From NCBI GenBank assembly GCA_030603165.1, contig JAUVYH010000001.1, positions 4,837 through 68,836 of the forward strand: DNA of 64,000 bases, read 5' to 3'. A model generated the notes under the pieces. It made no database searches, was not told the origin of the DNA, and was given only the letters and a program-made list of their open reading frames with translations. This stretch comes from Fidelibacterota bacterium. GTDB lineage: Bacteria > Fidelibacterota > UBA2242. The position numbers and the translations under genes are program-made. Positions 2,131 to 25,690 of the stretch are shown here, one piece after another (positions within the stretch are counted from its first letter, which is position 1; every line of letters starts with the position of its first letter).

Positions 2131-5100
2131 ATGGACAAAAAATTTATATTAGTTATGCTTCTTTTGCTCTGCATGGTGCAGTACGTTTTTTCCGGAATCA
2201 CCGGTAAAATTGTTGGAAAAGTTACAGATACTGAGAGTGGAGAGCCATTGGTGGGTGCTAATGTTTTTATTAAGGGCACAACCATGGGAGCAGCCACTGA
2301 CTCGAACGGAGATTACTTAATTCTTAACATTCCGCCTGGCGTCTATACATTGGCGGCATCGATGATAGGCAACACAACCGTTAATCAAACTGACGTGTCT
2401 GTGTCTGTAGACCATACTGTTACTGTCGATTTTGCCTTACCACCTACAGTTATAGAGGGTGTGGAGGTTACAGTAGTGGCTGAGAGGAAAGTCATTAAGA
2501 TGGATATGTCTGCCAGTCAAGTCAGTATTAGCGCGTCGGATGTCGTGGAACTTCCCAACGCGACCAGCATTGAAGATGTCATTAATCTTCAAGTAGGGCT
2601 GGATTTTGATCCAACTACCAGAGGATATGATGAACAGGCAGAGGTGACTATCCGAGGGGGTGGAAGAGGACAGAACTCATTTATGGTTGATGGATTAACG
2701 ATGGTGGATAACCGATCAAACAGACCGATGATGATGGTCAATCTTAGCTCTGTAAAGGAAATTAACATCATTAAGGGAGGCTTTAATGCGGAATATGGTA
2801 ATGTTCGATCTGGATTAATTAACGTTGTTACCAAAGAAGGTTCTTCGACTGCATATAATGGTTCGCTTGAACTTCGGATGACCCCTGGCCACCTAAAACA
2901 TGCGGGTGAATCAATCTTTGATCCAAACAGCTACTATTTGCGGCCATATCTTGATCCTGCTGTATGTTGGAATGGTACCGCGAGTGGAAGCTGGGATGAG
3001 GCAACCCAGGCACGATATAATTCCTTTATGGGATGGAATGAATTTGCCAACACGTTAGAAGGTGTGACTCCGCAACAAGCCAGGGATATTTTCATCTGGC
3101 AGCACCGGGCTGAAGGCTCTGATGATCTTGGTCGGGAAGCGGGAAGCTACGGCGATAAGCCGGACTGGATTGCAGAAGCAAGTTTTGGCGGTCCGGTTCC
3201 CTTTATCAGTAAAAAATTAGGCGGCTTGAATTTTTTTGCTACTCATCGGACCAATAATGAACAGTTTGCACTGCCCACTAACAGGGACTACTTTACAGAA
3301 CAGAATTCTCAGTTAAAGCTATGCACTAAAATAACTCCGTCCCTGAAAGTTACGGTCGAGGGAGTATATGGAGAGATTCATACCGTTCAATCTGCTCCGC
3401 GTGGTTCCGGAATGGATGCCTATATGACAAGTGGAATGGATATACTCTATTCCCCAATTGCTACTGGTGATGATTATGTGCTCGGTCAGAACGCTGCTTT
3501 GTATTATCCTTCTGCCCTGAATCTATTCGATATTTATAGGTCTATGGTAGGCATAGCTATTGATCATGTTTTGAGCCCACGTACATTTTATAATGTGAGA
3601 ATCTCTCGGACTCGCGTTAAAAATCTTTGCACTGGTCCGGATAGATTTCGGGACAACACGACCATTCGAACTTTTGGTGACTTTGCCGTTGATGAAACAC
3701 CATTTGGATATCAGGTTGGTATCGAAACCATGTTTGATGGTATGTCTACAACCGGAGAGGGGTCTACCCGGGATTACTCGGAAGTCAATACCGTCAATGT
3801 TAAATTTGATATCACCAGCCAGGTCAACAAATACAATCAGATTAAGTCGGGATTGGAATATAATTATGATGATCTTGATGTTCACTACGAGCACAACCAA
3901 ATAGGTGATGCAGGTAATAACTGGATAGTTAAGTGGAGGAGATATCCGTACCGTGCCAGTATGTATATACAGGACAAACTTGAATTCAAGGGCATGATTG
4001 CCAATGTAGGTTTAAGAGCAGACTTGAATAATCCAAATTCAAAGGCATTCGTAACGGATAGATATTCCATGTATTTCCGGAAAAAATTTATGGATACGTT
4101 TCAAGATTTAGCTCCTTACGAAGATGCTAAAGTGCGCCTGAAACTTAGCCCTCGTTTAGGAATTTCTCATCCAATTACCGAAGATGCCAAACTTTACTTT
4201 AATTATGGTCATTTCTATTCGGTGCCAACATCTAATGAGATGTTTCTCATTATGAAACGGGCTCAAGGGCTTAGTGATATAGGCAATCCCAATGCTGAAT
4301 TAGCAAAAACAGTAGCCTATGAGTTAGGTGTTGAGTACAGTCTCTTAGACATGTTCCTGCTTCATTTGTCCAGCTATTATAAAGACGTCAGCGAACAACT
4401 TGCCAATATCCATTATGTCGGCTATGATGGAGGTGTCAACTATTGGTCTCGTGAAAATAACAATTACGAGGATATTCGAGGATTTGAGGCTAAAATTGAA
4501 AAGCGTTTTGGGGCATGGGTTACCGGATGGGTAAATTATAACTATATGGTGACTACATCCGGATATATTGGACGGCAGACCTATTACGAGGATCAAAGAA
4601 GGCAGGCGCAAGAAGGACTAATGAATCCGGTCCAGAATCGTCCGCTCGCACGTCCTTTAGCCCGCGCTAATATCACCATCACGAGTCCCAATGATTTCGG
4701 GCCGACAGTTGCAGGATTTAATCCAGCTGCTGGTGTCCGGTTAGATTTGCTTTATATCTGGAGAGCCGGTAAGTACGAGTCAATAGGTGATTATAGAATG
4801 TGGAATAAAGTGGGTGATGTCGAATTAATTGATGATTTGCAATGGAAAGGTCGGACCACTTTTGATTTAAGATTACGAAAAAAAATATCTTATATAAAAT
4901 ATGACTTTAGCTTGTATCTGGATATCGCCAATGTGTTTAACATAAAATACCTCGAAGAATCAGGCTTTGCAGACGCTGATGATAGAACCTCTTATATGAG
5001 ATCATTGCACCTGCAGCGGTACAACGGCGACGAGTTTGCGACTAAGGCAGAATATGAGGCTATGGACTGTATTGCCGGCGACGATAAGCCGGGAGACGTA

Positions 5101-5199
5101 AAGTCCGATGATAAACCTTACATAGATATGCCAGACCGCGAATTTCTTACCTATCTGAATCCTCGAACAATTACGTTTGGATTAGGAATTAATTTTTAA
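2131..5199 (+). CDS. TonB-dependent outer-membrane receptor with N-terminal carboxypeptidase-regulatory-like domain and plug domain
   Basis: Signal peptide; 'GKIVGKVTDTESGEPLVGANVFIKGTTMGAATDSNGDYLI' (CarbopepD_reg-like); plug region '...VTIRGGG..FMVDGLTM...'; C-terminal aromatic residue (..LGINF); 1022 aa; SD gagaggag upstream. Confidence 0.85.
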   Translation: MDKKFILVMLLLLCMVQYVFSGITGKIVGKVTDTESGEPLVGANVFIKGTTMGAATDSNGDYLILNIPPGVYTLAASMIGNTTVNQTDVSVSVDHTVTVDFALPPTVIEGVEVTVVAERKVIKMDMSASQVSISASDVVELPNATSIEDVINLQVGLDFDPTTRGYDEQAEVTIRGGGRGQNSFMVDGLTMVDNRSNRPMMMVNLSSVKEINIIKGGFNAEYGNVRSGLINVVTKEGSSTAYNGSLELRMTPGHLKHAGESIFDPNSYYLRPYLDPAVCWNGTASGSWDEATQARYNSFMGWNEFANTLEGVTPQQARDIFIWQHRAEGSDDLGREAGSYGDKPDWIAEASFGGPVPFISKKLGGLNFFATHRTNNEQFALPTNRDYFTEQNSQLKLCTKITPSLKVTVEGVYGEIHTVQSAPRGSGMDAYMTSGMDILYSPIATGDDYVLGQNAALYYPSALNLFDIYRSMVGIAIDHVLSPRTFYNVRISRTRVKNLCTGPDRFRDNTTIRTFGDFAVDETPFGYQVGIETMFDGMSTTGEGSTRDYSEVNTVNVKFDITSQVNKYNQIKSGLEYNYDDLDVHYEHNQIGDAGNNWIVKWRRYPYRASMYIQDKLEFKGMIANVGLRADLNNPNSKAFVTDRYSMYFRKKFMDTFQDLAPYEDAKVRLKLSPRLGISHPITEDAKLYFNYGHFYSVPTSNEMFLIMKRAQGLSDIGNPNAELAKTVAYELGVEYSLLDMFLLHLSSYYKDVSEQLANIHYVGYDGGVNYWSRENNNYEDIRGFEAKIEKRFGAWVTGWVNYNYMVTTSGYIGRQTYYEDQRRQAQEGLMNPVQNRPLARPLARANITITSPNDFGPTVAGFNPAAGVRLDLLYIWRAGKYESIGDYRMWNKVGDVELIDDLQWKGRTTFDLRLRKKISYIKYDFSLYLDIANVFNIKYLEESGFADADDRTSYMRSLHLQRYNGDEFATKAEYEAMDCIAGDDKPGDVKSDDKPYIDMPDREFLTYLNPRTITFGLGINF

Positions 5200-5237
5200 T
5201 TAGGTGAAAACTAAATAGAGAAGGAAGGAATACAATT

Positions 5238-7445
5238 ATGAAAAGAAATTATTTAATAATAGAACTTCTGCTAACATGTTTCCTATTTTCGTATAATATT
5301 GTATACGCGGGTTTCACCAAGAATATACAAGTTGGGAGTTATCAGACATTTGTCGATGACAATACCCATCAGGGTGAAACCTCAGTAGGCGATCGTGGTG
5401 CTATGTATCAGAATGCTTTTCACTGGGGTTGGCCTGCCTGTGCGGTACAGTTTTCAGGGTGGTACCTGGGCGCCAAAAACTGGACAGCAGAAGATGGAGA
5501 CGTATGGCCTGTGAAGCTCACTGGTGCGGCACCTGTCACGGTAAATGAGTTGCAAGCCCAGATGCCGGTAGCAGATGAGGACGGATATTTTATCAGAAAA
5601 TATGTGAGATATCGACCTCCCACGGTTGTCGTCGATGGCTTCGAAACAAATGAGCCGTTTCCATTGGAAGGTGATGAAGTCGCTCCCGATAAGATCCCGG
5701 GAACGGCAGATGTCATGGTAACATCAACAATTAATACCGATATGGGAGTCACGATAACTCAAAAAGTACTTGCCTGGAGCCAAAAAAATCACGATGATTA
5801 TATCATCTATGATTGGACATTCACCAACACGGGAAATATCGATCTGGATGAGGAAATTGAACTTCCAAATCAGACATTAGAAGGCGTTTACTTTCTCCGA
5901 TCAAGCAGGCTCGAACGATGGGATTCAGAATATTGGTATAGCGGTTTCGGGGAATATACAACAGATACGCTACGGATGCGCTATGCCTATCCAGCGAGGA
6001 GAAAAGGTGCGGACCATGATAATACCGGAAATGGTTTCTGGGCGCCACAACCGGGCTGGCTTTGGAATTCGCAGTCTGTCGGTCAGGCTATACTTCATGT
6101 TGATAAATCTGTGGACGATCCAACAGATGACTTTGATCAACCGGGTATGACCGGCACAGAGAATAGCGACCTTCTCTGGATTCGAAATGATCCTACCTCC
6201 ACCGGTCCCGCGGATTGGGCTCAGGTATATAAAGTAATGACAGAAGGATGGGTATGGCGAGGCAATGTACCCCGACTCACACAAGACAATGCCCCCGCCG
6301 GGATGACAGTACGCTCCGGATACCGTTCAGTGAGAATGCAGGATCTTGCCGTGCCTGGCACGAAATTTATTTTGGATCTCGACTGGGTTACCTACGGCGC
6401 CGCATATTTTTGGGATGCCGGTCCATACACGATGAAACCCGGGGATTCGTTCCGGATCGTCTGGGCGGATGGATTTGGAGTCATCAATCCGCTGAAAATC
6501 TGGGAAATTCAGGGAGCATGGGAACAGGGAACAGCCACACCACCTGAAGGGATGACATTTGACAATGCTACTGGAGTTGGTTTGCTTGATAACATGCCGC
6601 CCCCCTATAAAAATAATCCTGACCTGTATGATAATGATTATAATAACTGGTCCAGGGATTGTTGGATTTTTACAGGTATTGATTCTCTCATTCAAAATAT
6701 GAATGCCGCCCAGTGGAACGTGAGAAACAATTATAACGTGCCAATCCCGCCGCCGCCGCCATCAGTTACCGTCAGTTCAAAACCGAACCAGATCGTGATT
6801 GAGTGGGGTAATGAATCAGAAGCAGCGTCGGATTTTGCCGGTTACAGATTATATCGATCCGAAGGTTTCTGGTATGAAGGGCATATTCCATGGACTAATG
6901 AGACAAGGCATGGTAGGTGGGAACTTATTAGGGACTTTCATGGTAGCAGTACTCACAGTTATGAGGATACGGACGTGACCCGTGGTCTTGCCTATTACTA
7001 TTACGTAACCGCCTATGATGATGGTGAGAGCAATGGACCTGATGTCAATGGACAGAATCAAGTTCTTGAGAGTGGTGCTTTTCTAAATGTAACAAAACGC
7101 GCTGCATATCTAACCAGAGATGCAGGAAGCAAACTCGAAAATATTGTTGTCGTACCCAATCCATTTAATATTAGCGCTATAGATCTGCAATATCCAGGTG
7201 AGCCAAACAAAATAATGTTTTTGGAATTGCCCCCGGTTTGTACCATCAGGATTTACACCGAGAGTGGTGATTTAGTGAGAACCATTGAACATACCAACGG
7301 TTCCGGTGATGAAGCATGGGGCGTATTGGCGAATGAACACCTCGCCTCTGAAATAGGGCAGCTGGTCGTGAGTGGTATTTATATTGCCAACATTGAAACG
7401 CCGGACGGCGATAGCATCAATCGTAAAATCGTGATCGTAAGGTAA
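5238..7445 (+). CDS. T9SS-secreted surface protein: unknown ~480-aa N-terminal region, poly-Pro linker, FN3-like domain, type-A T9SS C-terminal sorting domain
   Basis: Signal peptide; 'PPPPPS' linker; FN3-like 'IVIEWGN...GYRLYRSEG...YYYYVTAYD'. C-terminus 'VVPNPFN...IRIYTESGDLV...SGIYIANIETPDG...RKIVIVR' matches the Por secretion tail pattern. Confidence 0.65.
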   Translation: MKRNYLIIELLLTCFLFSYNIVYAGFTKNIQVGSYQTFVDDNTHQGETSVGDRGAMYQNAFHWGWPACAVQFSGWYLGAKNWTAEDGDVWPVKLTGAAPVTVNELQAQMPVADEDGYFIRKYVRYRPPTVVVDGFETNEPFPLEGDEVAPDKIPGTADVMVTSTINTDMGVTITQKVLAWSQKNHDDYIIYDWTFTNTGNIDLDEEIELPNQTLEGVYFLRSSRLERWDSEYWYSGFGEYTTDTLRMRYAYPARRKGADHDNTGNGFWAPQPGWLWNSQSVGQAILHVDKSVDDPTDDFDQPGMTGTENSDLLWIRNDPTSTGPADWAQVYKVMTEGWVWRGNVPRLTQDNAPAGMTVRSGYRSVRMQDLAVPGTKFILDLDWVTYGAAYFWDAGPYTMKPGDSFRIVWADGFGVINPLKIWEIQGAWEQGTATPPEGMTFDNATGVGLLDNMPPPYKNNPDLYDNDYNNWSRDCWIFTGIDSLIQNMNAAQWNVRNNYNVPIPPPPPSVTVSSKPNQIVIEWGNESEAASDFAGYRLYRSEGFWYEGHIPWTNETRHGRWELIRDFHGSSTHSYEDTDVTRGLAYYYYVTAYDDGESNGPDVNGQNQVLESGAFLNVTKRAAYLTRDAGSKLENIVVVPNPFNISAIDLQYPGEPNKIMFLELPPVCTIRIYTESGDLVRTIEHTNGSGDEAWGVLANEHLASEIGQLVVSGIYIANIETPDGDSINRKIVIVR

Positions 7446-7523
7446 AAGTAATAGATGAAAACTTTCCAGACTTTGTCTACCTAATGTAGATTACATTTAG
7501 GATAAATAAGGAGTAAAATTACT

Positions 7524-8510
7524 ATGAAGAAATTAATCATACTTTTGGTCGCTATTTTTACGGCGGCTATCATAACAATACCTGCCCATGCGGCATTAAA
7601 AAAAGTGTCCCAAACCGGGTTCCAATTTCTGAAAATTGATGTTGCGCCTCGAGCTGCCGCCATGGGTGGGGCGTATACATTGACAGGGAATGACGCCAGC
7701 GCCATGTTCTATAACCCTGCAGGCATGGCTATGATGCAGCACAACGTTGATTTTTTCTCAAGCAGAACACAATGGATAGCTGATATCAGTTACAGTGTAG
7801 CGGGAATAGCTAAAAATTTTGATAAGTGGGGCACTGTTGGCGCAAGTTTTATTTTTAGTGATTATGGCGACATCATTGGTACTCGAGTTGCTAAGAACGA
7901 ACAAGGTTACGAGAAAACCGGAAATATTGATGTTGGAGCGTATGCAATAGGTGTAAGCTACGCCAAATCTTTGACAGACAAATTTTCCGTCGGTGGTCAG
8001 ATTAAATATGCAGCTCAACATCTTGGCGACAACGTGTTTACGGAGGGTGGCAAATCTTATAAAAATGAAGTATCCGGATTTGCCTTTGACTTTGGCACTA
8101 TTTTTTATCCTGGTTTCGAAAGCTTGAGATTTGGAATGAGTGTTAATAATTTTTCAGGACAGTTTCAATATGAAGAGGATCCGTTCCAATTACCCCTCAC
8201 ATTTAAAATTGGTGTTGCTATGAACGTAATGGATTTATTAGGCGATTATGAAAATCCTTTACTCATCGCCATCGATGCTATTCATCCTCGTGATTACACA
8301 GAGAGAATACATATTGGAGGTGAATATTGGTATAAAAATATGATAGCATTCAGGACCGGTTATAAATTCAATTACGATGAAGAAGGTTTCTCTGTAGGAA
8401 TTGGTTTTAAGCGCACCATTGCTGGAACGAATATGAAGTTGGACTATGCCTATAGTGACTTAGGCAGATTTAACGCAGTATCCAGAGTTTCTCTTGGAAT
8501 TTCATTATAG
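7524..8510 (+). CDS. PorV (LptO)/FadL-like outer-membrane beta-barrel protein, probable T9SS cargo shuttle (alternatively PorP/SprF-like)
   Basis: Signal peptide; N-terminal 'FQFLKIDVAPRAAAMGGAYTLTGNDASAMFYNPAGMA' with NPAG hatch motif; 328 aa; C-terminal aromatic-rich beta-strand pattern. Located directly downstream of a T9SS-CTD cargo gene. Confidence 0.5.
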   Translation: MKKLIILLVAIFTAAIITIPAHAALKKVSQTGFQFLKIDVAPRAAAMGGAYTLTGNDASAMFYNPAGMAMMQHNVDFFSSRTQWIADISYSVAGIAKNFDKWGTVGASFIFSDYGDIIGTRVAKNEQGYEKTGNIDVGAYAIGVSYAKSLTDKFSVGGQIKYAAQHLGDNVFTEGGKSYKNEVSGFAFDFGTIFYPGFESLRFGMSVNNFSGQFQYEEDPFQLPLTFKIGVAMNVMDLLGDYENPLLIAIDAIHPRDYTERIHIGGEYWYKNMIAFRTGYKFNYDEEGFSVGIGFKRTIAGTNMKLDYAYSDLGRFNAVSRVSLGISL

Positions 8511-8780
8511 AGTTAAATGCTCTTTGTGTTTTCATCAAAAGTATTTGAAGATACTGTGATTTCTATAAAAGTGCTTTTGTTGGGTGAAAATTGTGATGCT
8601 TTAAAAGAACCGCACTGGAAACAGGCCTCGGTAAAATTGTAAACTTGAAAGATTTAGTTTAATTAGCCTTTTTAATTTCACTACAGTTGCCGAGGTCTGT
8701 TTGTTGTTCTCAAAGAAGATTTTTAGAATCAAATCTAGTAGAATTAAAGTTACATCAAAAATCCATATAAGGAGGAAACA

Positions 8781-10331
8781 ATGTTACGAATTATTTATTA
8801 TTTTCTTATCGCTCTTATGATAGGAATTTCGACAACGGTTCAAGCAGCGGATTTAAATGCTCGTATTAAGATTGATACTGAACGTACGATTGGTGAAATC
8901 AACAAAAACATATATGGCAATTTTGCTGAGCACTTAGGTCGTTGTATATATGGAGGCATTTACGATCCCGGTTCGAAACTCTCTAATAAAATGGGTTTTC
9001 GAAAAGATGTACTGAAAGCAGCCAAAGGTTTGAATGTACCTCTTCTGAGATGGCCGGGAGGGAATTTTGTATCCGGCTATCACTGGGAAGATGGAATTGG
9101 GCCGAAAAAGAATCGTCCGGAAAGAACGGATCTGGCGTGGCATACTCCGGAACCAAACACGTTTGGTACCGATGAGTTCATTGATTTTTGTCGTGCAGTG
9201 GGAACAGAACCGTACTTCGCAGTGAATTTAGGTACAGGTACACTGGATGAGGCCAGAAACTGGGTTGAATACTGTAATGTAAAAGAAGGCCCTTATTATG
9301 CCGAATTGCGAAAGAAGAATGGACATACCAAACCGCATAACGTTATGTACTGGTCATTGGGCAACGAAATGGATGGCTTTTGGCAAATGGGGCACAAAAA
9401 TGCCGATGACTACGGCAAATACGCCCTGGAAGCCGCAAAGCTGATGAAGTGGACTTCCCCGGAAATTAAGCTCATCGCGGCTGGCTCTTCAAATTTTTAT
9501 GGTGGAGCAGATCCGCACGGATGGAATAGAGTTGTGTTGGATTATTTGAAAGATTATGTCGACTACATTGCGCTGCACAAATATGTCGGGAACCGCGATA
9601 ACGACTATTATTCTTTCATGGCATCGACGATGGATATCGATGAACGGACGAGTATTGTTGAAGGTCAAATTAAGGAAGCATTATCCAAATCACGTCGAAA
9701 GACGCCGATCTATGTAGCCTGGGATGAGTATAATGTATGGTATCGGGCTCGTGGTGGAGCAGCGGCGAGAGGGAGAAATGCTCTGGAAGAAAAATACAAT
9801 CTGGAAGATGCGTTGGTTGTCGCGGGTTTCTTAAATGCATTTATCAGAAATGCTCACATTGTTAAAATGGCGAATATGGCTCAGTTGGTGAATGTAATTG
9901 CTCCTATCTTTACCAGTGAAACTGATATGTTCAGACAAACAATCTATTATCCACTCGCTCTTTATGCGAATAATTCGCACGGAACCGCCCTGGACGCTTT
10001 TGTGGATTCGCCAACCTATGATACAGAACAATGGAAACAGGTTCCGTATCTGGATGTATCTGTGGCGTATAACAATGATGAGGTCATTATAAATGTTGTA
10101 AACAGACATCTAGAAGAAAGTATTAATACGGAAATTATTAGCCAAACAGGCGAATTCAGTGGTACATTTTCGGTCTATGAAGTTAATGGCCCCGATGTTA
10201 AGACAGAAAACACATTTGGCAGTGAACCTGTAAAATCTGTTAAAAAACCCGGTATTAAAGTCAAAGGGAATAGTTTCTCTTATGAATTTCCTCCTCATTC
10301 ATATGTGATGATTAAAGGAAAGTTGAAATAA
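8781..10331 (+). CDS. abfA: GH51 alpha-L-arabinofuranosidase (secreted)
   Basis: 'NIYGNFAEHLGRCIYGGIYDPGS', 'LRWPGGNFVSGYHWEDGIGP', acid/base 'WSLGNEMDG', nucleophile region 'AWDEYNVWY'; signal peptide; 516 aa. Confidence 0.88.
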   Translation: MLRIIYYFLIALMIGISTTVQAADLNARIKIDTERTIGEINKNIYGNFAEHLGRCIYGGIYDPGSKLSNKMGFRKDVLKAAKGLNVPLLRWPGGNFVSGYHWEDGIGPKKNRPERTDLAWHTPEPNTFGTDEFIDFCRAVGTEPYFAVNLGTGTLDEARNWVEYCNVKEGPYYAELRKKNGHTKPHNVMYWSLGNEMDGFWQMGHKNADDYGKYALEAAKLMKWTSPEIKLIAAGSSNFYGGADPHGWNRVVLDYLKDYVDYIALHKYVGNRDNDYYSFMASTMDIDERTSIVEGQIKEALSKSRRKTPIYVAWDEYNVWYRARGGAAARGRNALEEKYNLEDALVVAGFLNAFIRNAHIVKMANMAQLVNVIAPIFTSETDMFRQTIYYPLALYANNSHGTALDAFVDSPTYDTEQWKQVPYLDVSVAYNNDEVIINVVNRHLEESINTEIISQTGEFSGTFSVYEVNGPDVKTENTFGSEPVKSVKKPGIKVKGNSFSYEFPPHSYVMIKGKLK

Positions 10332-10514: not shown

Positions 10515-12104
10515 ATGTATTACAACAAAATTTGGAGAAGGGTATCACTTGTAATGATGTCTAAATGTATGGTTGCTGTTTTATCGATCGTATTGTTTGT
10601 TGGCGTTGTTTCATTGACTGCCGCGGAAAATGTTAACAAATTAATCGTCAATACTGACCAGGGTAAGGAAACGATAAACCGTCACATTTATGGGCATTTT
10701 TCCGAACACCTGGGCCATTGTATTTATGGCGGGTATTGGGTTGGTGAGGATTCAGATATTCCGAATACCAGGGGGATCAGAAATGATGTGGTTGAAGCAT
10801 TGAGAAAAATTAATATTCCTAACCTTCGCTGGCCCGGCGGCTGCTTTGCTGATGAGTACCATTGGATGGATGGTATTGGACCGCGTAACAAACGTCCAAA
10901 AATGATAAATACGCATTGGGGCGGAGTCACTGAAGATAACAGCTTCGGAACCCATGAGTTTTTAGATTTATGCGAACAGTTAGGCACCGAACCTTACATA
11001 TGTGGAAATGTCGGCAGCGGTACTGTCGAAGAAATGTCGAAATGGGTTGAATATCTAAATTCTGATGGCATAAGCCCAATGTCTGATGAGCGAAGGAAAA
11101 ACGGACGGGATAAAGCCTGGGGTGTTAAATATTGGGGTGTTGGAAACGAAAACTGGGGATGTGGCGGAAATATGACCCCTGAGTTTTATGCCGATCAATA
11201 CAAACGGTTTGCCACATATTGCAGAAATTATGGCGACAACCGTTTACTAAAAATTGCCGGTGGGGCAAATACAGATGATTATAACTGGACAGAAGTTTTA
11301 ATGAAGAAAATTACTCCTCGGGGAATGTGGGGACTTTCATTGCATTATTATACAACAAATTGGTGGAATAAGGGATCAGCCACTGAATATGATAAAAAAG
11401 GATACTTTGAGGTGATGGATCGGTGTTTAAATATTTCCAAAGTGATTGACAGGCATATGACAATCATGGATAAATACGATCCTGAAAAAAGAGTAGCCCT
11501 GGTGGTTGATGAATGGGGCACCTGGTTTGATGTTGAACCTGGAACCAATCCGGGATTTTTATTCCAGCAAAACACGATTCGTGATGCGATTGTGGCGGGC
11601 ATTCATTTAAATGAATTCAATAAAAGGTGCGACCGTATTAAAATGGCCAATATTGCCCAAACTATCAATGTGCTTCAGGCATTGATTTTTACAAAAGATG
11701 AAAAAATGTTATTAACACCGACTTACCATGTTTTTGAAATGTACAAGGTTCATCAGGACGCCACTTTACTACCCACTGAGCTGCAGTGCACGGACTATAA
11801 GTTTGGGGATGAAAAACTCCCGGCATTGAATGCCTCGGCATCGAGAGACAAATCAGGGAAGATTCACATATCAATTTGTAATTTGGATCCAAATAAGTCT
11901 GCCAAACTTGATTGCGAATTGCGGGGTATCAAGGCGAAGAAGGTTTCCGGTCGTGTGTTAACCACAGCGGCTATCAATTCACACAATACTTTTGATAACC
12001 CGGATGTAGTTCATCCAACTATTTTTAAGGATGTCAAATTAAAAAGAGGTAAGTTAACCGCAACGCTCCCGGCAAAGTCAGTGGTGGTTTTTGAAATTGA
12101 GTAG
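10515..12104 (+). CDS. abfA: GH51 alpha-L-arabinofuranosidase, second paralog (secreted)
   Basis: '[24 protein letters not shown]', '[20 protein letters not shown]', 'WGVGNENWG', 'VVDEWGTW'; 529 aa. The start may be a downstream Met (MMSK..., 10551). Confidence 0.85.
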
Positions 12105-12232: not shown

Positions 12233-13699
12233 ATGATGTGTAATGAGTTTAGGACAAGGTCGTCCCAGATGAAGGCTTATATAAAATTAAGCATTGTTGC
12301 ATATCTGTTATTGTTGATACTGGGTTTAAATTCGTGCGGAAAAGAAGATCCCATTCAAACGAATACAGATCTATATGATCCTGAAATAAATGACGATTAT
12401 AGCAGCATTGCGGAGATTGGCTATTCGAGCTTATGGGGCACCTATAATTTACACGATCCTTCAATTATCAAATTCGATAATATCTATTATATCTTTTCTA
12501 CCGATGTAGCCTATGGACCTAATGGTCGATGCGGTGTGATGTGGCGACAGTCGAATGATCTTGTTCACTGGAGTTTCAATGGCTGGGTATTCAACGGTGT
12601 TCCCAATAATCCTCTTGAATTTATGGAGGCTAATCAACCTGGCTATCGACAACTATCCATTTGGGCGCCTTATATCATAAAATCCGGTGAACAGTTCAGG
12701 CTTTATTATTCAGTACCAGGAAACGATTGGTTTAAGCTGGCATGTATTGGCTTAGCCACGAGTACTTCTTCTCTTGGCCCATGGAATGATGAAGGCATCG
12801 TGATCTCTTGTCTTCCCTCAGATCATTATAATGCCATTGATCCGGCCGTAATAGTTGATCAAGATAATGGCAAACACTGGTTTATATATGGTTCTTACTC
12901 ATCTGGCATATACATAGTTGAATTGGATCCTGCCACAGGCAAAATACTCAAAGCGGGCGATAAGGGGAAACGGATTGCCTACCGGGGAAAAGACCACGAT
13001 GCTATCGAGGGCGGAGAGATCATCTATAACCCGGAGTTTGATGCCTATTACCTTTTTGTTTCGTACGACTGGCTAGAAGACAATTATAATGTGCGTGTAG
13101 GTCGTTCCGACAAGCCTGAAGGTCCGTACCTTGATATCCATGGCAATAATATGGCTGACGTAGGAGATAACTATCCGATGATAACTGCCAAATACCGGTT
13201 TAAGGGACATGCCGGATGGCAGGGAGTCGGGCATTGTGGTCTCCTGAAAGATGGTGACGATTACTTTTTTGTGAGCCAAGGGCGGTTAAGCTCCAATATC
13301 TATCTGATGGTTTTACATGTTCGGCGAATGGTATGGACTCCTGACGGCTGGCCGGTTGTTTCACCAAACAGATATGCAGGAGTGCCGCAAACAGAGATCA
13401 CTACAGATGATATCGTCGGCAAATGGGAACATATCGATCTTGATGAAATTACAACAGTAAATCAGTCAATAGAAATTGAATTACTCAGTGATGGATCTGT
13501 TTCCGGAATCGAAAACTCAAGCTGGGATTATGAAGGCGAGTTGTTAACCCTTTCGTTAAATAACAGAGGAACAATTTATCAAGCCAGGGTTTTTAATGAA
13601 TGGGACTGGGTAAATAAATACCGCACGTTAGTATATACGGGATTAACATCTAATGGACAAGCCGGCTGGGGTAAAAAAATGAGTGAATTTACTCCTTAA
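12233..13699 (+). CDS. GH43 family glycoside hydrolase (arabinanase/arabinofuranosidase-type) lipoprotein
   Basis: 'YNLHDPSIIKFDNIYYIFSTD', 'WAPYIIKSGEQFRLYYS', 'DPAVIVDQDNGKHWFIYGSY' five-bladed propeller motifs; lipobox 'LNSCG'. The likely true start is Met at 12269. Confidence 0.8.
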   Translation: MMCNEFRTRSSQMKAYIKLSIVAYLLLLILGLNSCGKEDPIQTNTDLYDPEINDDYSSIAEIGYSSLWGTYNLHDPSIIKFDNIYYIFSTDVAYGPNGRCGVMWRQSNDLVHWSFNGWVFNGVPNNPLEFMEANQPGYRQLSIWAPYIIKSGEQFRLYYSVPGNDWFKLACIGLATSTSSLGPWNDEGIVISCLPSDHYNAIDPAVIVDQDNGKHWFIYGSYSSGIYIVELDPATGKILKAGDKGKRIAYRGKDHDAIEGGEIIYNPEFDAYYLFVSYDWLEDNYNVRVGRSDKPEGPYLDIHGNNMADVGDNYPMITAKYRFKGHAGWQGVGHCGLLKDGDDYFFVSQGRLSSNIYLMVLHVRRMVWTPDGWPVVSPNRYAGVPQTEITTDDIVGKWEHIDLDEITTVNQSIEIELLSDGSVSGIENSSWDYEGELLTLSLNNRGTIYQARVFNEWDWVNKYRTLVYTGLTSNGQAGWGKKMSEFTP

Positions 13700-13710
13700 A
13701 AAAGCGAAAA

Positions 13711-16317
13711 GTGAAATTGAAAAAATCAGAAAGAGATACTCGGACGAAAAGGGAAGATACCCTATCCGAATCTAAGAAACTTACCGGATGCCGCAAATGG
13801 TTTTTCTTTTTTGTGCTAACAGTGATTATACCCGCATTATTATTTTTACTTCTTGAGATCAGTCTAAGAATTATCGGGTATGGATACCCTACAGATTTTT
13901 TCATACCAAGACAGGTTGAAGGCAATCAAGTTTTCACTGACAATATGAAATTTACCTGGCGATTCTTCCGCCCGGAGCTGGCTCGTCCCTCCTGTCGTTT
14001 AGTCATACCTGCCGAGAAATCGTCCGATACTTTTCGAATATTTGTGCTTGGCGGGTCTGCTGCTATGGGAGATCCGGACTTTTCGTTTGGCTTTAGCCGG
14101 ATACTTGAGACTATGCTGCAGCATCAGTATCCCGACGTGCGATTTGAAGTAATCAATGCAGCTGTAACAGCCATTAATAGCAACGTTGTCTTGCCTATCT
14201 CCCGGGATTGCGCAAAGCTCCAACCTGATTTGTTTATCATTTACCTCGGAAATAACGAGGTGATTGGACCTTATGGACCAGGAACTGTATTTGCGCCATT
14301 TTCGTCAAATCTGGGTTTAATTCGGGCTAATATTTTTTTGAAGTCTACGAAGATTGGGCAATTACTGAATAGCTTAAGGCAGCAATTGGACACGGATGAA
14401 GATAACATGCAGACATGGGGTGGGGTGGACATGTTTGTCAAAAACCGATTGCGTTTCAATGATACGCGCATGGCGGCGGTGTATGAGCATTTTCGTGGCA
14501 ACCTTATAGATATATGCAAGACTGGACAGCGAGCCGGCGCTAAGGTCGTTGTCTGTACTGTGCCCACTAATTTAAAAAATTGCGCCCCTTTTGGTTCACT
14601 GCATCGTCGGGATTTGATTTATGCTTCAATAAGCGAGTGGAATGCGATTTACGACACCGGTATTGCTTTAGAGTCATCTGGCAAATATGAAGAGGCTATA
14701 GAGTATTATTTGAGGGCCGCCGGTATTGATGATGAATTTGCTGATTTACAGTTTCGTTTAGCCAGGTGTTACTGGAAATTAGGACAATATGGTGAAGCCC
14801 ACAAGCATTTCATTATAGCACGGGATCTGGACGCATTGAGATTTCGTGCTGATACTCAAATCAATGAAATAATCAGAAATGTTGCTGCTGACTGTAGCAG
14901 TGAAGGCGTGTCTCTTGTAGACGCGGAAAAAGTTTTTCAAGCGGACAACTCTCATGGGAGCCCGGTCGATGATCTCTTTTATGATCATGTACACATGAAT
15001 TTTAGCGGCAACTTTCTTCTTGCCCGGCTTGTTAAGGAACAGGTTGAAAATGTCTTTGGGATGGAAAGCCGGGGCAATACTCTTTCCCAGGTAGAATGTG
15101 CCGGACGTCTGGCGTTTACGCCCCGGGATAGTTACCGTATTCAAAAGGAGATCCTTGGAAGAATGAAGTCCCCGGCGTTCGCAAATCAGATTGACAATGC
15201 CGAATCAGTACGACATTTAGAAGCGAAACTGGACAGCATGAGAACATACTTAAAACAGGATGCGTTGACCCAAGCGGTTGAAAACTACCGCCGGGCTATA
15301 GAGATAAACGAGCAGGATTGGGTAGTGCGGAATAACTTTGGGTTGCTGCTTTTGGAAGCCGGCGGCGATCCTATTGGTGCGGCTGAACAGTTCCGTTCTG
15401 TCCTGCGTGTTTTCCCTGATGACTATTTGTCCCATAACAATCTGGGACTGGCATTCGAACAGCAGGGTAAAATAGATGAGGCAGTTGCCTGCTACGAGGA
15501 GGCATTACTAATCAAACCCAACTTTCCGAAAGCCAACTTTAATCTGGGAAAAGTTCTGGAACGTCAGGGTAAATATAAAGAGGCTATCAGGCATTACTAT
15601 CTGGCACATCTGCCGACACAAGGCTTGGCGGATGCGCACAATAGGTATGGCAAAAAGCTTGCGAACGATGGTAAGATGGATCAGGCCGTCAGCCAGTTTG
15701 AAGAGGCCATCAGACTTTGGCCCGACTCACCGAATGTACATCGTAATCTGGGGAATGTATTTGCACAGACGGGGAAAACAGATTTAGCGATTCAGCACTT
15801 TTCAGAAGCGGTGAGAATCATGCCTGAATTGGCAGCGGCGCATATAGACTTTGCGTCACTGCTCTTCATGCAGGGAGATTATGGAAATGCTATCGAGCAT
15901 TACAATAAAGTACTTCAGCTTAGACCTGACCTTCCTGAGGTACACAATAATCTGGGATTGGCTCTTTGCAAACAGGGAGAATTCGAGAAGGCAATTAAGC
16001 ATTTTCAAAAAGCGCTATTAGTCAGGAAGGATTTTCTCGCTGCCCGCAACAACATGGCCGGGGCGCTAAGCCAATTAGGGAGGAGTGAAGAAGCAATCAC
16101 TCAACTGAAAGAGGCACTGCGGATAAACTCAGACAATCCAGATTTCCATAACAATATTGGGGTTGAGTTGTTGAAACTTGGCAAGATCGAACAGTCCATT
16201 ACTCATTTTGAAAAGGCGTTACAGTTAAATCCCAAATTAAAAAGTGCACAGAATAACTTGGAATATGCTTTATCTCAGCTAAAAGATAGCGACAATGAGA
16301 AGCTATCTAAAGAATAG
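13711..16317 (+). CDS. Membrane-anchored SGNH/GDSL-hydrolase-like domain fused to a long TPR-repeat array (868 aa)
   Basis: GTG start; one TM helix; putative SGNH blocks 'FVLGGSAAMG', 'IIYLGNNEV', 'YDHVHMN' (DxxH); >=10 TPR units in the C-terminal half (e.g. 'AIEHYNKVLQLRPDLPEVHNNLGLAL'). Confidence 0.6.
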   Translation: MKLKKSERDTRTKREDTLSESKKLTGCRKWFFFFVLTVIIPALLFLLLEISLRIIGYGYPTDFFIPRQVEGNQVFTDNMKFTWRFFRPELARPSCRLVIPAEKSSDTFRIFVLGGSAAMGDPDFSFGFSRILETMLQHQYPDVRFEVINAAVTAINSNVVLPISRDCAKLQPDLFIIYLGNNEVIGPYGPGTVFAPFSSNLGLIRANIFLKSTKIGQLLNSLRQQLDTDEDNMQTWGGVDMFVKNRLRFNDTRMAAVYEHFRGNLIDICKTGQRAGAKVVVCTVPTNLKNCAPFGSLHRRDLIYASISEWNAIYDTGIALESSGKYEEAIEYYLRAAGIDDEFADLQFRLARCYWKLGQYGEAHKHFIIARDLDALRFRADTQINEIIRNVAADCSSEGVSLVDAEKVFQADNSHGSPVDDLFYDHVHMNFSGNFLLARLVKEQVENVFGMESRGNTLSQVECAGRLAFTPRDSYRIQKEILGRMKSPAFANQIDNAESVRHLEAKLDSMRTYLKQDALTQAVENYRRAIEINEQDWVVRNNFGLLLLEAGGDPIGAAEQFRSVLRVFPDDYLSHNNLGLAFEQQGKIDEAVACYEEALLIKPNFPKANFNLGKVLERQGKYKEAIRHYYLAHLPTQGLADAHNRYGKKLANDGKMDQAVSQFEEAIRLWPDSPNVHRNLGNVFAQTGKTDLAIQHFSEAVRIMPELAAAHIDFASLLFMQGDYGNAIEHYNKVLQLRPDLPEVHNNLGLALCKQGEFEKAIKHFQKALLVRKDFLAARNNMAGALSQLGRSEEAITQLKEALRINSDNPDFHNNIGVELLKLGKIEQSITHFEKALQLNPKLKSAQNNLEYALSQLKDSDNEKLSKE

Positions 16318-16379
16318 TATTAGACGAGAGGATTCGTGCAAATAACATTAACCTTTGGTGACCTAAATAGAATATTAAG

Positions 16380-18392
16380 GTGGATAAAATGAATCGTCAA
16401 CTTTTTAATCACATCTCGAGATTATTGTGTATATTTTTAGCGATAGTCACGATGTCTTGTAAACCAGCAGAAAATGCTAAGTTAAGAACAGGCTATCCCA
16501 TCACTCCCGTCTCATTTACCGACGTTGAATTATCAGATAATTTCTGGTCCGAGCGCATTAAAACCAACCGGGATGTCACGATTCCCTTTGGTTTTAAAAA
16601 ATGCGAAGAAGAAGGACGGATTCGAAATTTTGCCAGAGCCGGCGGATTACTCGAAGGCGAATATGAAGGGAAAATGCCATTCGATGATACAGATGTTTAT
16701 AAAATCATAGAAGGTGCTTCATATTCTTTGACGACAAATCCGGATAAAGAATTAGAAAAATATATCGATGATATTATCGAAAAAATTGCTGCAGCTCAGG
16801 AACACGACGGTTACCTGTGTACCTGGAAAACTTTAGCTCCCGATACAACTCCCGCACCTTGGGTTAAACCAGGACCACGCTGGCATCATTTGGGAGCCAG
16901 TCATGAATTATACAATGCGGGTCATATGTATGAGTCTGCTTTTGCTCATTATCGGGCAATGGGCAAGAGAAATTTTTTAAACATTGCTTTGAAGAACGCC
17001 GATTTAATTGCAGAAGTATTCGGTCCCGGGAAAAAGCTCGATCCGCCGGGGCATCAGATCATTGAAACGGGACTCGTTAAATTATACAGGATAACCCAGG
17101 ATAAAAAGTATCTCGATTTAGCGAAGTTCTTTTTGGACCAACGCGGCAATGCAGAAGGTCATAAGCTTCATGGACCTTATAGTCAGGATCATCAGCCGGT
17201 CATTGAACAGAAAGAGGCTGTTGGACACGCTGTACGTGCAGCTTATATGTATGCCGGAATGACCGATATCGCTGCTATGATGCAAGATTTATCCTATCTG
17301 AAAGCTGTTGACAACATTTGGGAAAATGTAGTATCGAAAAAAATATATATTACCGGAGGAATTGGTGCACGTCATGGTGGCGAGTCATTTGGTGATAATT
17401 ATGAGTTACCTAATCTAACTGCCTATAATGAAACCTGTGCAGCCATTGGAAATATTTATTGGAATCATCGGATGTTTTTGTTGCATGGAGATGCCAAATA
17501 TATTGACATTTTGGAACGTACGCTCTACAATGGCGTGATTTCGGGGGTGTCTCTGGAAGGGAATTCATTTTTTTATCCCAATTGTCTGGAATCTGACGGA
17601 AAATACGCATTCAATATGGGTGCCTTAACCCGTCAACCCTGGTTTGATTGTTCTTGCTGCCCTTCAAACATTATTCGTTTTATGCCGTCCGTACCGAATT
17701 ATATATATGCGCACCGAGATGATTCGATTTTTGTTAATCTTTTTATTTCCGGAAAAACCAGAATTGATATAGATAAATCAACTGTTGAAATCTGTCAAAA
17801 AACTGACTATCCTTGGGATGGAAAAGTTATTTTAAAAATTAATCCTAAGGAGGATAAGAAATTTGCAATAAATATCCGCATCCCCGGATGGGCACGGAAT
17901 CAACCGGTGCCAAGCGATCTATATAGATATCTGGTTACAAACAAGGAGAAGGTTACACTTAAAGTCAATGGTAATTACATTGATTTAAATATGGAGAAGG
18001 GTTATGCTCGCATTTGTAGAAAATGGCAAAAGGAAGATATAATTGAGCTAAATTTACCTATGCCGGTTAGACGTGTATTGGCTTGTGAGAGAGTAAAGAA
18101 TGATCTGGGAAGGGTGGCACTTGAGCGCGGTCCAATTGTTTATTGTGCTGAATGGCCTGACAACGGGGGCAAAGTTTTAGATATTCTATTGAGGGATTAT
18201 ATGCCTCTTAAGGTCGAATACCGGGGTGACATGTTGGGAGGAATTGCTGTAATTACAGGCGAGGTCATCCATTTGGATTCTACAAGAAGTGTCAGGAAGG
18301 GCACGACTAAAAGTTTTATGGCAATACCATACTATTCCTGGGCCCACCGCGGGGTGGGTGAAATGTCTGTTTGGCTAAAACATGATCAATAA
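16380..18392 (+). CDS. GH127 beta-L-arabinofuranosidase (HypBA1/DUF1680 family) lipoprotein
   Basis: 'NETCAAIGNIYWNHRMF' (E-x-C) and 'CSCCPSN' give the Cys3-Glu zinc/catalytic-Cys pattern of GH127; lipobox 'TMSC'; 670 aa. Confidence 0.8.
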   Translation: MDKMNRQLFNHISRLLCIFLAIVTMSCKPAENAKLRTGYPITPVSFTDVELSDNFWSERIKTNRDVTIPFGFKKCEEEGRIRNFARAGGLLEGEYEGKMPFDDTDVYKIIEGASYSLTTNPDKELEKYIDDIIEKIAAAQEHDGYLCTWKTLAPDTTPAPWVKPGPRWHHLGASHELYNAGHMYESAFAHYRAMGKRNFLNIALKNADLIAEVFGPGKKLDPPGHQIIETGLVKLYRITQDKKYLDLAKFFLDQRGNAEGHKLHGPYSQDHQPVIEQKEAVGHAVRAAYMYAGMTDIAAMMQDLSYLKAVDNIWENVVSKKIYITGGIGARHGGESFGDNYELPNLTAYNETCAAIGNIYWNHRMFLLHGDAKYIDILERTLYNGVISGVSLEGNSFFYPNCLESDGKYAFNMGALTRQPWFDCSCCPSNIIRFMPSVPNYIYAHRDDSIFVNLFISGKTRIDIDKSTVEICQKTDYPWDGKVILKINPKEDKKFAINIRIPGWARNQPVPSDLYRYLVTNKEKVTLKVNGNYIDLNMEKGYARICRKWQKEDIIELNLPMPVRRVLACERVKNDLGRVALERGPIVYCAEWPDNGGKVLDILLRDYMPLKVEYRGDMLGGIAVITGEVIHLDSTRSVRKGTTKSFMAIPYYSWAHRGVGEMSVWLKHDQ

Positions 18393-18518
18393 TCAAAAAT
18401 GATAATGTATGGAAAATGAAGCATAAACGGCTATATCGTTTTATGAATTGGAATAAATGTTACAAGGCAAATAATTCTGAAAGACAAATCAATTTATAGT
18501 AGGAGAAAAAGGCTAAAG

Positions 18519-20330
18519 ATGTATATACTTGGGATTTCAGCATATTACCATGATAGCGCCGCATGTTTATTAAAAAACGGAGTAATTCTAGCGGCGGCTC
18601 AAGAGGAAAGATTTACTCGCATTAAACATGATCACGCATTCCCTGACAACGCAATAAATTTTTGCCTTAGCAAGGAGAACATACATCCCGAGAATTTGGA
18701 TTTCATTGTATTTTATGATAAACCAATTTTAAAATTTGAAAGAATTTTATATACATATCTTCAGTTTGCTCCTTCCGGAATTAGGTCTTTCATTAAAGCA
18801 ATTCCATTATGGTTAAAGAAAAAAATATGGATTAAAGAGTATATAAGAGATAGCCTTAAATATTCCGGTGAAATCTTTTTTTGCGAGCATCATCAATCAC
18901 ATGCTGCATCAGCATTTTTTCCTTCTCCATTTCAAGAAGCCGCCTTTTTAACAATGGACGGGGTTGGAGAATGGGCTACCACAAGTTTTGGATATGGTCA
19001 TGATAATCAAATAGAAATTTTAGGAGACTTATATTTTCCCCATTCATTAGGCTTGCTATATTCTGCATTTACATATTTTACTGGGTTTAAAGTCAACTCA
19101 GGGGAATATAAGTTAATGGGACTTGCTCCGTACGGAGAACCTAAATATGTTGATACAATATTTAGTGAACTTATTGACTTGAAAGAAGACGGTTCCTTTA
19201 AACTAAATATGAAATATTTTGATTATTGTGCAGGCTTAACAATGACGAATAGGCGTTTTGAAAAGATATTCGATGGTCCACCTCGCAAGCCTGAAACTAA
19301 AATTACACAACGCGAGATGAATTTGGCAAATTCTATTCAAAAAGCTACAGAAGAAGTAGTTTTAAAAATGGCTGTGCATGTTCGCAAGGAAACCGGAATG
19401 AAAAATTTATGTCTTGCCGGTGGTGTTGCCCTAAATTGTGTTGCAAATGGGGAATTATTAAAAAAGCAATTGTTTGATAATATTTGGATTCAACCTGCTG
19501 CTGGCGATGCCGGAGGTGCTTTGGGAGCAGCAATGTATATATGGTATCAATATTTAAAACATAGACGGACAAGTGATGAAAAAAATGATAAAATGCAGGT
19601 GGCATATTTAGGACCAAGATATAGCGATGATGAAATTAAGAACTTTCTTGAAAAAAATAATATAGTTTATAAAAAATATTCTGATGACAGACTTTTTGAT
19701 ATTATTGCAGAGTTAATTGCGAATGAGAAAGTTATTGGGTGGTTTCAAGGGCGTATGGAATTTGGGCCAAGAGCCCTAGGCTCACGCTCAATAATAGGAG
19801 ACGCGCGCTCAGCTATGATACAGAAAAAATTGAATTTGATTAAATTTCGTGAGAGTTTTCGTCCTTTTGCAGCTTCAATTTTATTGGCTTATACATCAGA
19901 ATATTTTGATAATAATTCTGAAAGCCCTTATATGTTATTAGTATATAATCTAAAGAAAAAACATAGATTGCTTATATCAGGCAATAAACAATATACTGGT
20001 TTTAACAAATTAAATGTGGTTAGATCAGATTTGCCTGCAATTACACATGTTGACTATTCTTCCAGGATTCAGACTGTAAATGAAGAAACAAATCTTCGAT
20101 TCTACAAATTAATTGAAAAATTCAATAATAAATATAATTGTCCAGTTATTTTAAATACCTCTTTTAATGTCCGAGGAGAACCGATAGTATGCAGCCCTGT
20201 AGATGCATTTACATGTTTCGCAAATACTAATATGGATTATTTAGTGTTAGAAAATTATTTTATAGATAAAAAACAGCAGAATTATTTACCTAAATCAATA
20301 AAATATAAAAGAAAATTTGAGTTGGATTAA
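18519..20330 (+). CDS. Carbamoyltransferase (NodU/CmcH/SxtI family)
   Basis: N-terminus 'MYILGISAYYHDSAACLLKNGVILAAAQEERFTRIKHDHAFP' and 603-aa length are typical of NodU-family O-carbamoyltransferases. The stop overlaps the start of the next gene (taATGctaATG). Confidence 0.8.
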   Translation: MYILGISAYYHDSAACLLKNGVILAAAQEERFTRIKHDHAFPDNAINFCLSKENIHPENLDFIVFYDKPILKFERILYTYLQFAPSGIRSFIKAIPLWLKKKIWIKEYIRDSLKYSGEIFFCEHHQSHAASAFFPSPFQEAAFLTMDGVGEWATTSFGYGHDNQIEILGDLYFPHSLGLLYSAFTYFTGFKVNSGEYKLMGLAPYGEPKYVDTIFSELIDLKEDGSFKLNMKYFDYCAGLTMTNRRFEKIFDGPPRKPETKITQREMNLANSIQKATEEVVLKMAVHVRKETGMKNLCLAGGVALNCVANGELLKKQLFDNIWIQPAAGDAGGALGAAMYIWYQYLKHRRTSDEKNDKMQVAYLGPRYSDDEIKNFLEKNNIVYKKYSDDRLFDIIAELIANEKVIGWFQGRMEFGPRALGSRSIIGDARSAMIQKKLNLIKFRESFRPFAASILLAYTSEYFDNNSESPYMLLVYNLKKKHRLLISGNKQYTGFNKLNVVRSDLPAITHVDYSSRIQTVNEETNLRFYKLIEKFNNKYNCPVILNTSFNVRGEPIVCSPVDAFTCFANTNMDYLVLENYFIDKKQQNYLPKSIKYKRKFELD

Positions 20331-20758: not shown

Positions 20759-20789
20759 TACTCAGATCTGTTATTTAGGAAAGGAAAAT

Positions 20790-20948: not shown

Positions 20949-21090
20949 AACCCGTTATAAATGTTGTTAATTTATTAAATTAGGATATTGGTTTAATGTA
21001 TGATGTATAGTACAAATTATAAATAGTGGGTTAATGAACCGTGAATTCAATTCGTAAGTACTAATCAAGAGTTTTTAAGGAAGGGGGCAA

Positions 21091-25645: not shown

Positions 25646-25690
25646 ATTAAAAAGATTTTTATTTTACAAATGGAACAAAAGTTTAAAAGA

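Follow-up and report, generated by a model that had tools for sequence, protein, structure and literature searches.

A conserved TonB receptor, CTD protein and PorV/PorQ-family barrel cassette as a candidate outer-membrane core of SusD-independent polysaccharide-utilisation loci

How might a bacterium import polysaccharide fragments through a TonB-dependent receptor when no SusD partner is encoded beside it? The question is raised by three consecutive plus-strand genes at positions 2131-8510 of a 64,000-nt stretch of DNA, which is called the window throughout. The genes encode a TonB-dependent receptor of 1022 aa (2131-5199), a 735-aa protein (5238-7445) that ends in a putative type IX secretion system (T9SS) C-terminal domain (CTD), and a 328-aa outer-membrane barrel of the PorV/PorQ family (7524-8510). 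They are spaced by 38 nt and 78 nt, and carry the Shine-Dalgarno-like motifs AGGAG, GGAAGGA and AAGGAG, respectively, in a window in which a 4-mer Shine-Dalgarno core precedes 21 of 34 genes; a first-pass annotation of the sequence had placed these open reading frames (ORFs) exactly and had noted strong Shine-Dalgarno sites for all three. To our knowledge, TonB-dependent glycan uptake is mechanistically understood only for the SusCD systems of Bacteroidota and, more loosely, for the CUT (carbohydrate-utilisation) loci of Proteobacteria. On balance we favour the view that the trio is the outer-membrane core of a SusD-independent polysaccharide-utilisation locus (PUL), directed here at arabinan, in which the barrel serves as the anchor of a CTD that is not cleaved.

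A SusD-less receptor in a conserved three-gene cassette

The receptor has a signal peptide and the Pfam domains CarboxypepD_reg/CarbopepD_reg_2, Plug and TonB_dep_Rec_b-barrel, and it passed the generic test for TonB-dependent receptors with scores of 43.5 bits for PF07715 and 69.3 bits for PF00593, both above the cut-off. It does not belong to the SusC/RagA family, for which the model TIGR04056 gave 59.3 bits against a cut-off of 368.25 and aligned with residues 26-239 only; this partial match, far under the cut-off, indicates that the receptor shares the SusC-type N-terminal architecture and size but lies outside SusC/RagA. Sequence comparison with the PDB returned plug-domain matches only (YncD and PqqU) and no SusC-like chain. 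No Pfam or NCBIfam model of the SusD family matched any of the window ORFs that were scanned, in agreement with the first-pass description of a CarbopepD_reg receptor that is not followed by SusD. The next gene, whose product has no Pfam domain match, is not SusD, so the locus falls outside the definition of a PUL by its susC/susD pair.

Relatives of the 735-aa protein were identified by a scan of one genome per species, which confirmed at least 481 of them. We kept 78 loci of about 22 kb for comparison, and the conservation counts refer to 89 homologues in 76 non-redundant loci. Record titles assign the hosts to candidate division KSB1, Calditrichota/Caldithrix, Neomarinimicrobiota, Latescibacterota, WOR-3 and Ignavibacteriaceae/Melioribacteraceae, along with some metagenome-assembled genomes (MAGs) labelled otherwise; the labels of MAG loci were taken from the deposits, and some MAGs are plainly mis-binned. 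The nearest homologues and neighbours of the cassette are found in KSB1 MAGs at 79-83% identity (81% and 79% for the closest two), which fits the earlier suggestion that the DNA does not come from Bacteroidetes proper.

The order of the three genes is conserved beyond chance in nearly all of the 76 loci. A receptor homologue lies immediately 5' of the 735-aa homologue in 65 of the 67 loci that have room on that side, and a PorV-like gene follows immediately 3' in 66 of 76, while the full trio is present in 49 of the 59 loci with room on both sides. Of the ten loci that lack a downstream barrel, six have one at another place in the locus, which in L070, L076 and L078, for instance, is upstream of the receptor. 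Trios in tandem were found in L045, L047, L049, L067 and L081, and several copies per genome are common.

The genes around the cassette differ from locus to locus. They include glycoside hydrolases (GH) of families GH51 and GH43 with a LacI gene in a Marinimicrobia locus (L001), four sulfatases in L003, and GH109, tagatose-pathway genes and a DeoR regulator in a KSB1 locus (L082). Among 159 flanking proteins of the related loci we recorded GH51, GH43, GH95, GH2, GH31, GHL10, heparinase II/III, sulfatases and TIG-domain proteins, as well as canonical Por_Secre_tail domains in 18 of the 159, which indirectly support the view that the 735-aa protein is a T9SS substrate; SusD was not among the top 25 families listed for each set of these proteins. 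With flanks that change with the substrate, the cassette behaves as a PUL core. Its co-occurrence with GH genes across phyla related to the Fibrobacterota-Chlorobiota-Bacteroidota (FCB) group supports well the first-pass proposal of an alternative, SusD-less PUL-like architecture, and the cassette apparently replaces the Bacteroidota SusC/SusD pair in KSB1, Calditrichota, Marinimicrobia and related uncultured phyla. A LacI protein as universal regulator of the cassette was rejected, as LacI-like genes are present in only about ten loci and others have DeoR or ROK regulators.

A putative surface protein and its co-encoded barrel

The 735-aa protein belongs to a large family for which Pfam has no model and sequence comparison finds no relative of solved structure. 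We found 368 database homologues, all unnamed or generically named, from KSB1, Calditrichota and Marinimicrobia. When the N-terminal 474 residues were used as a query, 324 cluster representatives were retrieved at E<=1e-3 (58 of them at E<=1e-30), mostly of 680-780 aa, and the family thus comprises at least 324 clusters at 50% identity. An AlphaFold2 model built with 99 homologues (pLDDT 91.3, pTM 0.89) consists of a supersandwich of about 475 aa, an FN3 domain, a linker and a C-terminal domain. On the plus strand, the protein begins with an SPI-type signal peptide (5238-5312) that is predicted to be cleaved between VYA and GF and has no lipobox; a lipobox-like motif is present in only 2 of 99 homologues. 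The N-terminal β-supersandwich (aa 26-500; 5313-6737) was assigned, on the modelled structure, to the galactose-mutarotase-like or GH-type carbohydrate-binding fold that is common to the N-domains of GH15, GH65 and GH94 and to aldose epimerases. It is followed by an FN3-like domain (aa ~505-600; 6750-7037), a conserved linker (aa 601-635) and the CTD (aa 636-735; 7143-7442). Foldseek comparison of the model with the PDB returned FN3 tandems only, and the FN3 assignment is corroborated by a PF00041 match on the homologue P0107 and by homologues named "fibronectin type III domain-containing protein".

The supersandwich is also present in T9SS proteins of 1000-1600 aa (P0270, P0309, P0316 and P0331), in which its fusion partners are BNR/sialidase-like, beta-helix/DUF1565/pectate-lyase-like or CHB_HEX_C modules along with canonical Por_Secre_tail CTDs. 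In addition, one locus (L008) houses a second, variant module directly after its first trio (13531-21074 of that locus). This module encodes a 990-aa receptor, a 1148-aa protein and then a PorV-like gene that looks split. The N-terminal part of the 1148-aa protein is unrelated, whereas its FN3 domain and insertion-bearing CTD are homologous, with 30% identity over linker and CTD. Together, the fusions and the L008 swap suggest that the supersandwich is an accessory module of carbohydrate-binding type, and that the FN3-linker-CTD part travels with the barrel. The surface glycan-binding role that had been proposed for the 735-aa protein is supported only indirectly, by the GH-type fold, by the fusion to modules resembling carbohydrate-active enzymes (CAZymes) and by the susD-like position of the gene.

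The N-domain has a conserved core (residues 126-225) followed by a variable stretch (residues 226-475), a pattern that fits a constant scaffold or docking face combined with a variable ligand face. Distances between N-domains and between receptors co-vary in the 52 complete trios used for identity and co-variation statistics, with a partial correlation of 0.55 when the barrel is controlled for; such matrix correlations are descriptive only. The core contains near-invariant polar motifs (H185-D186-D187-Y188, N197-x-x-N200-x-D202-x-D204, E208 and H363), which would be expected if the 735-aa protein were a surface enzyme, either a new glycan-active family or one with mutarotase-like or lyase-like activity, built on the supersandwich, instead of a binder or lid. 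We regard this as improbable, because the same core motifs are kept in arabinan, sulfated-glycan and GalNAc-type loci, which argues against a linkage-specific active site, and because in the longer proteins the supersandwich is an accessory module beside putative catalytic domains.

The C-terminus of the 735-aa protein was accepted as a type-A-like CTD of a distinct subtype on the basis of matches at the family level. Among the C-termini of 26 family members, 23 match TIGR04183 (best E 3.6e-7), 23 match the PorZ model in its CTD region and 14 match the model of the T9SS sortase PorU (NF033707). The alignment of this copy with TIGR04183 spreads 75 residues over 50 profile positions, which implies a conserved insertion of about 25 residues. 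The CTD is also the best conserved part of the trio, with a mean pairwise identity of 0.55, compared with 0.47 for the barrel, 0.44 for FN3, 0.43 for the receptor and 0.34 for the N-domain. Conservation of the linker and the pTM of the model point to a CTD that is integrated into the protein and would be retained.

The 328-aa barrel scored 216.2 bits with NF033709, the model of the PorV/PorQ family, against a cut-off of 90, and is a member of that family. It failed both equivalog models, with 90.6 bits for PorV (NF033710, cut-off 250) and 91.4 bits for PorQ (NF033711, cut-off 220), and on these profile scores it is a separate subfamily, neither PorV nor PorQ proper. More than 2200 barrel homologues are present in the database under the NCBI name "PorV/PorQ family protein". 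A profile of the barrel family had a sole match in the PDB, namely PorV (6h3i_F, E 9.5e-17). Foldseek of the AlphaFold2 model (pLDDT 83.9) likewise ranked PorV first (8gl6_F, TM 0.72; 6h3i_F, TM 0.70). The resemblance to SprF/PorP that had been pointed out at first pass holds for the arrangement of a barrel gene next to its cargo, but not for family membership, as TIGR03519 gave 22.4 bits against 90.55.

The same annotation had called the barrel PorV/FadL-like, of which the first half stands by hidden Markov model and fold. The second half bears on a different explanation, in which the barrel is a FadL-type channel for uptake or export of a small hydrophobic or amphipathic compound, or a general porin, and its adjacency to the CTD protein reflects co-regulation only. 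Pfam Toluene_X (PF03349, FadL/TodX) matched the N-terminal part of the barrel below threshold (26.9 against 29.7 bits), the next-best folds after PorV were FadL, TbuX and TodX (TM 0.52-0.59), and some barrel homologues are named "long-subunit fatty acid transport protein". Nevertheless, a channel of this kind seems very improbable given the strength of the PorV/PorQ family score and of the PorV matches, and given that the barrel tightly adjoins the CTD protein in those 66 of 76 loci as well as a different CTD protein in the second module of L008.

A more serious alternative, although we think it unlikely, is that the barrel is a locus-specific shuttle of PorV type that takes over the 735-aa protein, its cargo, at the T9SS translocon. 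In both structure and profile comparisons the barrel is closest to PorV itself, and the matched structures include 8gl6, a translocon complex with bound substrate; the cargo CTD is of type A, a class that is normally cleaved (PMC10202324). On the other hand, a recycled carrier should not require that every cargo gene be accompanied by a carrier gene within its operon. The PorV and PorQ scores are equal and far under their equivalog cut-offs, and 328 aa is the size of PorQ and not of PorV. Furthermore, conservation within the cargo is highest in CTD and linker, where there is also an insertion specific to the family, an unusual pattern for a disposable signal.

The dedicated shuttle envisaged at first pass is therefore not favoured, and we prefer to see the barrel as an anchor because a barrel gene lies beside nearly every cargo gene, because linker and CTD are so well conserved, because the cargo has no lipid anchor and because there are precedents. 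One-for-one supply of barrels, needless for a recycled shuttle, fits an anchor that is stoichiometrically consumed. The precedents are PorU and PorZ, which do not lose their CTDs and are attached to the surface through PorV and PorQ (PMC5562754), and type B cargo, which is anchored by adjacent PorP/SprF-like barrels (PMC9143113). It has also been hypothesised in a review that CTDs are shielded from cleavage by cognate PorV-like barrels (PMC10202324).

If the barrel is an anchor, the 735-aa protein would be exported by Sec via its SPI signal peptide, and the type-A-like CTD would carry it across the outer membrane through the T9SS. An unremoved CTD would then stay bound to the co-encoded PorV/PorQ-family barrel and attach the protein to the surface, like PorZ with PorQ and PorU with PorV. 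There, the supersandwich may capture glycan chains and hand them to the adjacent TonB-dependent receptor, the role that SusD and the surface glycan-binding proteins have for SusC. Imported oligosaccharides would be trimmed by periplasmic or lipoprotein GH51, GH43 and GH127 enzymes, and L-arabinose would enter by an SSF symporter and be catabolised by AraA, AraB and AraD. Of this scheme, the genes present, their domain folds and families and the conserved order of the trio are observed, while the position at the surface, the binding of glycans, the contact with the receptor, the retained CTD and the barrel as anchor are inferred.

Several observations weigh against this picture of a glycan-binding protein on its own anchor. 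The CTD of the window copy does not reach the TIGR04183 cut-off of 23, with 18.5 bits for the whole protein and 22.4 bits for the isolated C-terminus, and Pfam PF18962 does not match it; the first-pass assignment of a type-A CTD thus holds at the family level, but this copy stays about 0.6-4.5 bits short. The invariant acidic and histidine residues of the N-domain core are kept across loci with unrelated substrates, which implies that they are not a substrate-specific binding site, and they could be catalytic or metal-binding. Barrel and cargo genes do not match one to one everywhere: a barrel is accompanied by two or three cargo genes in L065 and L069 and by two receptor-cargo pairs in L071, and no barrel is found nearby in L048, L064 and L080. 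A minority of loci, such as L084, have no obvious CAZyme neighbour. Finally, CTD and barrel distances gave a partial correlation of -0.05 when the receptor was controlled for, and thus no signal of pair-specific recognition; this would also fit the generic, transient interaction expected of a shuttle.

A bolder form of the anchoring proposal is that receptor, supersandwich-CTD protein and PorV-like barrel make up a stable three-part machine, in which the uncleaved CTD is the permanent non-covalent anchor of a glycan-capturing lid, and that this machine is the general replacement of SusCD in FCB-related phyla other than Bacteroidota, including the abundant marine Marinimicrobia. We put this forward tentatively, as a possibility that we would not yet expect to hold in full. 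If true, these phyla would employ type IX secretion in the construction of nutrient-uptake machines, and anchoring on the PorQ-PorZ principle would be an ancient mechanism that is widely reused.

The arabinan locus and its surroundings

Judged by the families of its genes, the trio is at the head of a complete locus for arabinan and L-arabinose, which extends from the polymer to the pathway genes of AraA, AraB and AraD. Downstream of the barrel, on the plus strand, are two GH51 alpha-L-arabinofuranosidases (8781-10331 and 10515-12104), identified by Pfam and NCBIfam and carrying SPI signal peptides, and a GH43 endo-1,5-alpha-L-arabinanase (12233-13699) with a lipobox-like signal peptide (LNSC). 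These are followed by an 868-aa TPR-repeat protein with a GDSL-like hydrolase region (13711-16317), a GH127 beta-L-arabinofuranosidase (16380-18392; lipobox-like signal peptide, TMSC) and an aldose 1-epimerase (22014-23192; INSC), the last two assigned by Pfam. The minus strand at 24140-29869 encodes, by Pfam, an AraA isomerase, a class II aldolase/epimerase (AraD-like), an FGGY kinase (AraB-like) and an SSF sodium:solute symporter. The 735-aa protein is the sole carrier of a CTD among the genes of the locus whose termini were inspected.

Some of these genes have features of their own. The TPR protein has an N-terminal hydrophobic segment, and large TPR proteins recur 3' of trios in different phyla, as in L001 (17305-19860) and L082 (15326-17206). 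An exported and lipidated aldose epimerase, as predicted from the lipobox-like signal peptide, is unusual. A NodU/CmcH-type carbamoyltransferase (18519-20330) lies within the arabinan locus, after GH127 and before the epimerase, and the low-GC stretch after it (20-22 kb, GC 0.32) contains short ORFs only.

Upstream of the trio, a plus-strand LacI-family gene (1742-2080) encodes a regulator of 112 aa that is cut down to the Pfam LacI helix-turn-helix, and an IS4-family transposase (242-1555) is located just upstream of it. Homology of the truncated protein to full-length LacI regulators upstream of related trios is confined to residues 4-78, and the arabinan locus may have lost its repressor. 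Between the barrel gene and the first GH51 gene is a 270-nt intergenic region (8511-8780, plus strand) with a long-range stem, in which CAGGCCTCGG (~8620-8632) pairs with CCGAGGTCTG (~8690-8702) at a fold z-score of -2.86. Both arms are kept in L005 and also in L004, which is divergent otherwise. The stem may be a partial terminator or a processing element between the trio and the enzyme genes. An Rfam scan of the window, this stem included, gave no match, and pattern scans for sigma-70 promoters and terminators gave fewer matches than shuffled sequence and are hence uninformative.

The region 3' of the sugar locus has a different content. It includes two gene sets of the molybdopterin xanthine-dehydrogenase family (32270-42267 and 52162-54261), together with an amidohydrolase, a dihydropyrimidine-dehydrogenase-like Fe-S flavoprotein, two genes of the OTCase-like carbamoyltransferase family and a carbamate-kinase-like gene. 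This assemblage suggests an island for purine and pyrimidine fermentation. Interspersed there are a DNA methylase-SNase fusion (33744-35063) and a Schlafen/AlbA_2 protein (43309-44712).

Significance and comparison with known systems

KSB1, Calditrichota, Latescibacterota, Marinimicrobia and Ignavibacteria are major degraders of polymers in sediments and the dark ocean. Full-text literature searches, whose coverage leaves out subscription-only papers, gave no description of the cassette, and it is not mentioned in the genome papers on KSB1, Caldithrix and Latescibacteria that were consulted. In single-cell genomes of Latescibacteria, sugars were predicted to enter via non-specific porins and TonB-dependent import to serve vitamin B12 and iron complexes only (PMC4454575). 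A three-gene marker that is conserved and easy to recognise would let PUL-like loci be predicted in these phyla, as susC/susD pairs do in Bacteroidota. The large uncharacterised family of the 735-aa protein would gain a testable role, and nutrient acquisition would be added to secretion and attachment as a field in which T9SS CTDs and PorV-family barrels have a part.

The cassette has several traits in common with the SusC/SusD (RagA/RagB) pairs of Bacteroidota. Both have a receptor of about 1000 aa with an N-terminal carboxypeptidase-regulatory-like domain, followed directly by the gene for a surface partner (here a predicted one), and both head operons of changing CAZymes and occur in paralogous copies. 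However, the cassette receptor is far below the cut-off of the SusC/RagA model (59 versus 368 bits), and its partner is a supersandwich-FN3-CTD protein without a lipid anchor, whereas SusD is a TPR-like lipoprotein. The third core gene, for a PorV-like barrel, is a further difference, and the hosts are KSB1, Calditrichota, Marinimicrobia, Latescibacterota, WOR-3 and Ignavibacteria, with use of Shine-Dalgarno sites.

With the pairs PorQ-PorZ and PorV-PorU (PMC5562754; PMC10202324), the cassette shares the combination of a type-A CTD protein with a PorV/PorQ-family barrel, and the PorZ and PorU models are matched, in their CTD regions, by cassette CTDs. The known pairs belong to the housekeeping equipment for secretion and are present in single copy, with genes that are generally not adjacent to cargo, whereas the pair in the cassette is multiplied and operon-linked to a nutrient receptor, and its cargo is a putative glycan binder. 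CTD retention is established in the known pairs and would be expected in the cassette if the barrel is an anchor.

Type B cargo with PorP/SprF-like barrels, as in SprB-SprF and PG1035-PorP (PMC9143113), provides a second parallel, since there too a dedicated barrel gene adjoins the cargo gene and the barrel is proposed to be a surface anchor independent of PorU and PorV. In contrast, the barrel of the cassette is not of the PorP/SprF family and its CTD is type-A-like, not type B.

The CUT loci of Proteobacteria reportedly combine a TonB-dependent receptor with CAZymes, a regulator and an inner-membrane transporter, and have no SusD. The SusD-less receptor, LacI-type regulation, CAZymes and inner-membrane symporter within one locus are thus shared with the window; unlike the cassette, CUT loci are not known to have a conserved surface partner or barrel beside the receptor or a link to type IX secretion. 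In the transferrin-binding TbpA/TbpB system, a TonB-dependent receptor works with a surface co-receptor, and the genes of Slam translocons lie next to those of their substrates. As predicted for the cassette, the receptor is helped there by a β-rich surface co-receptor that is displayed via a dedicated outer-membrane barrel, but the Tbp co-receptors are lipoproteins, Slam is an unrelated barrel family, and the ligands are host iron proteins, not glycans. Overall, the cassette probably puts the PorQ-PorZ and PorP-cargo principle to use in nutrient uptake, and in comparison with CUT loci it has two extra conserved outer-membrane genes beside a SusD-less receptor.

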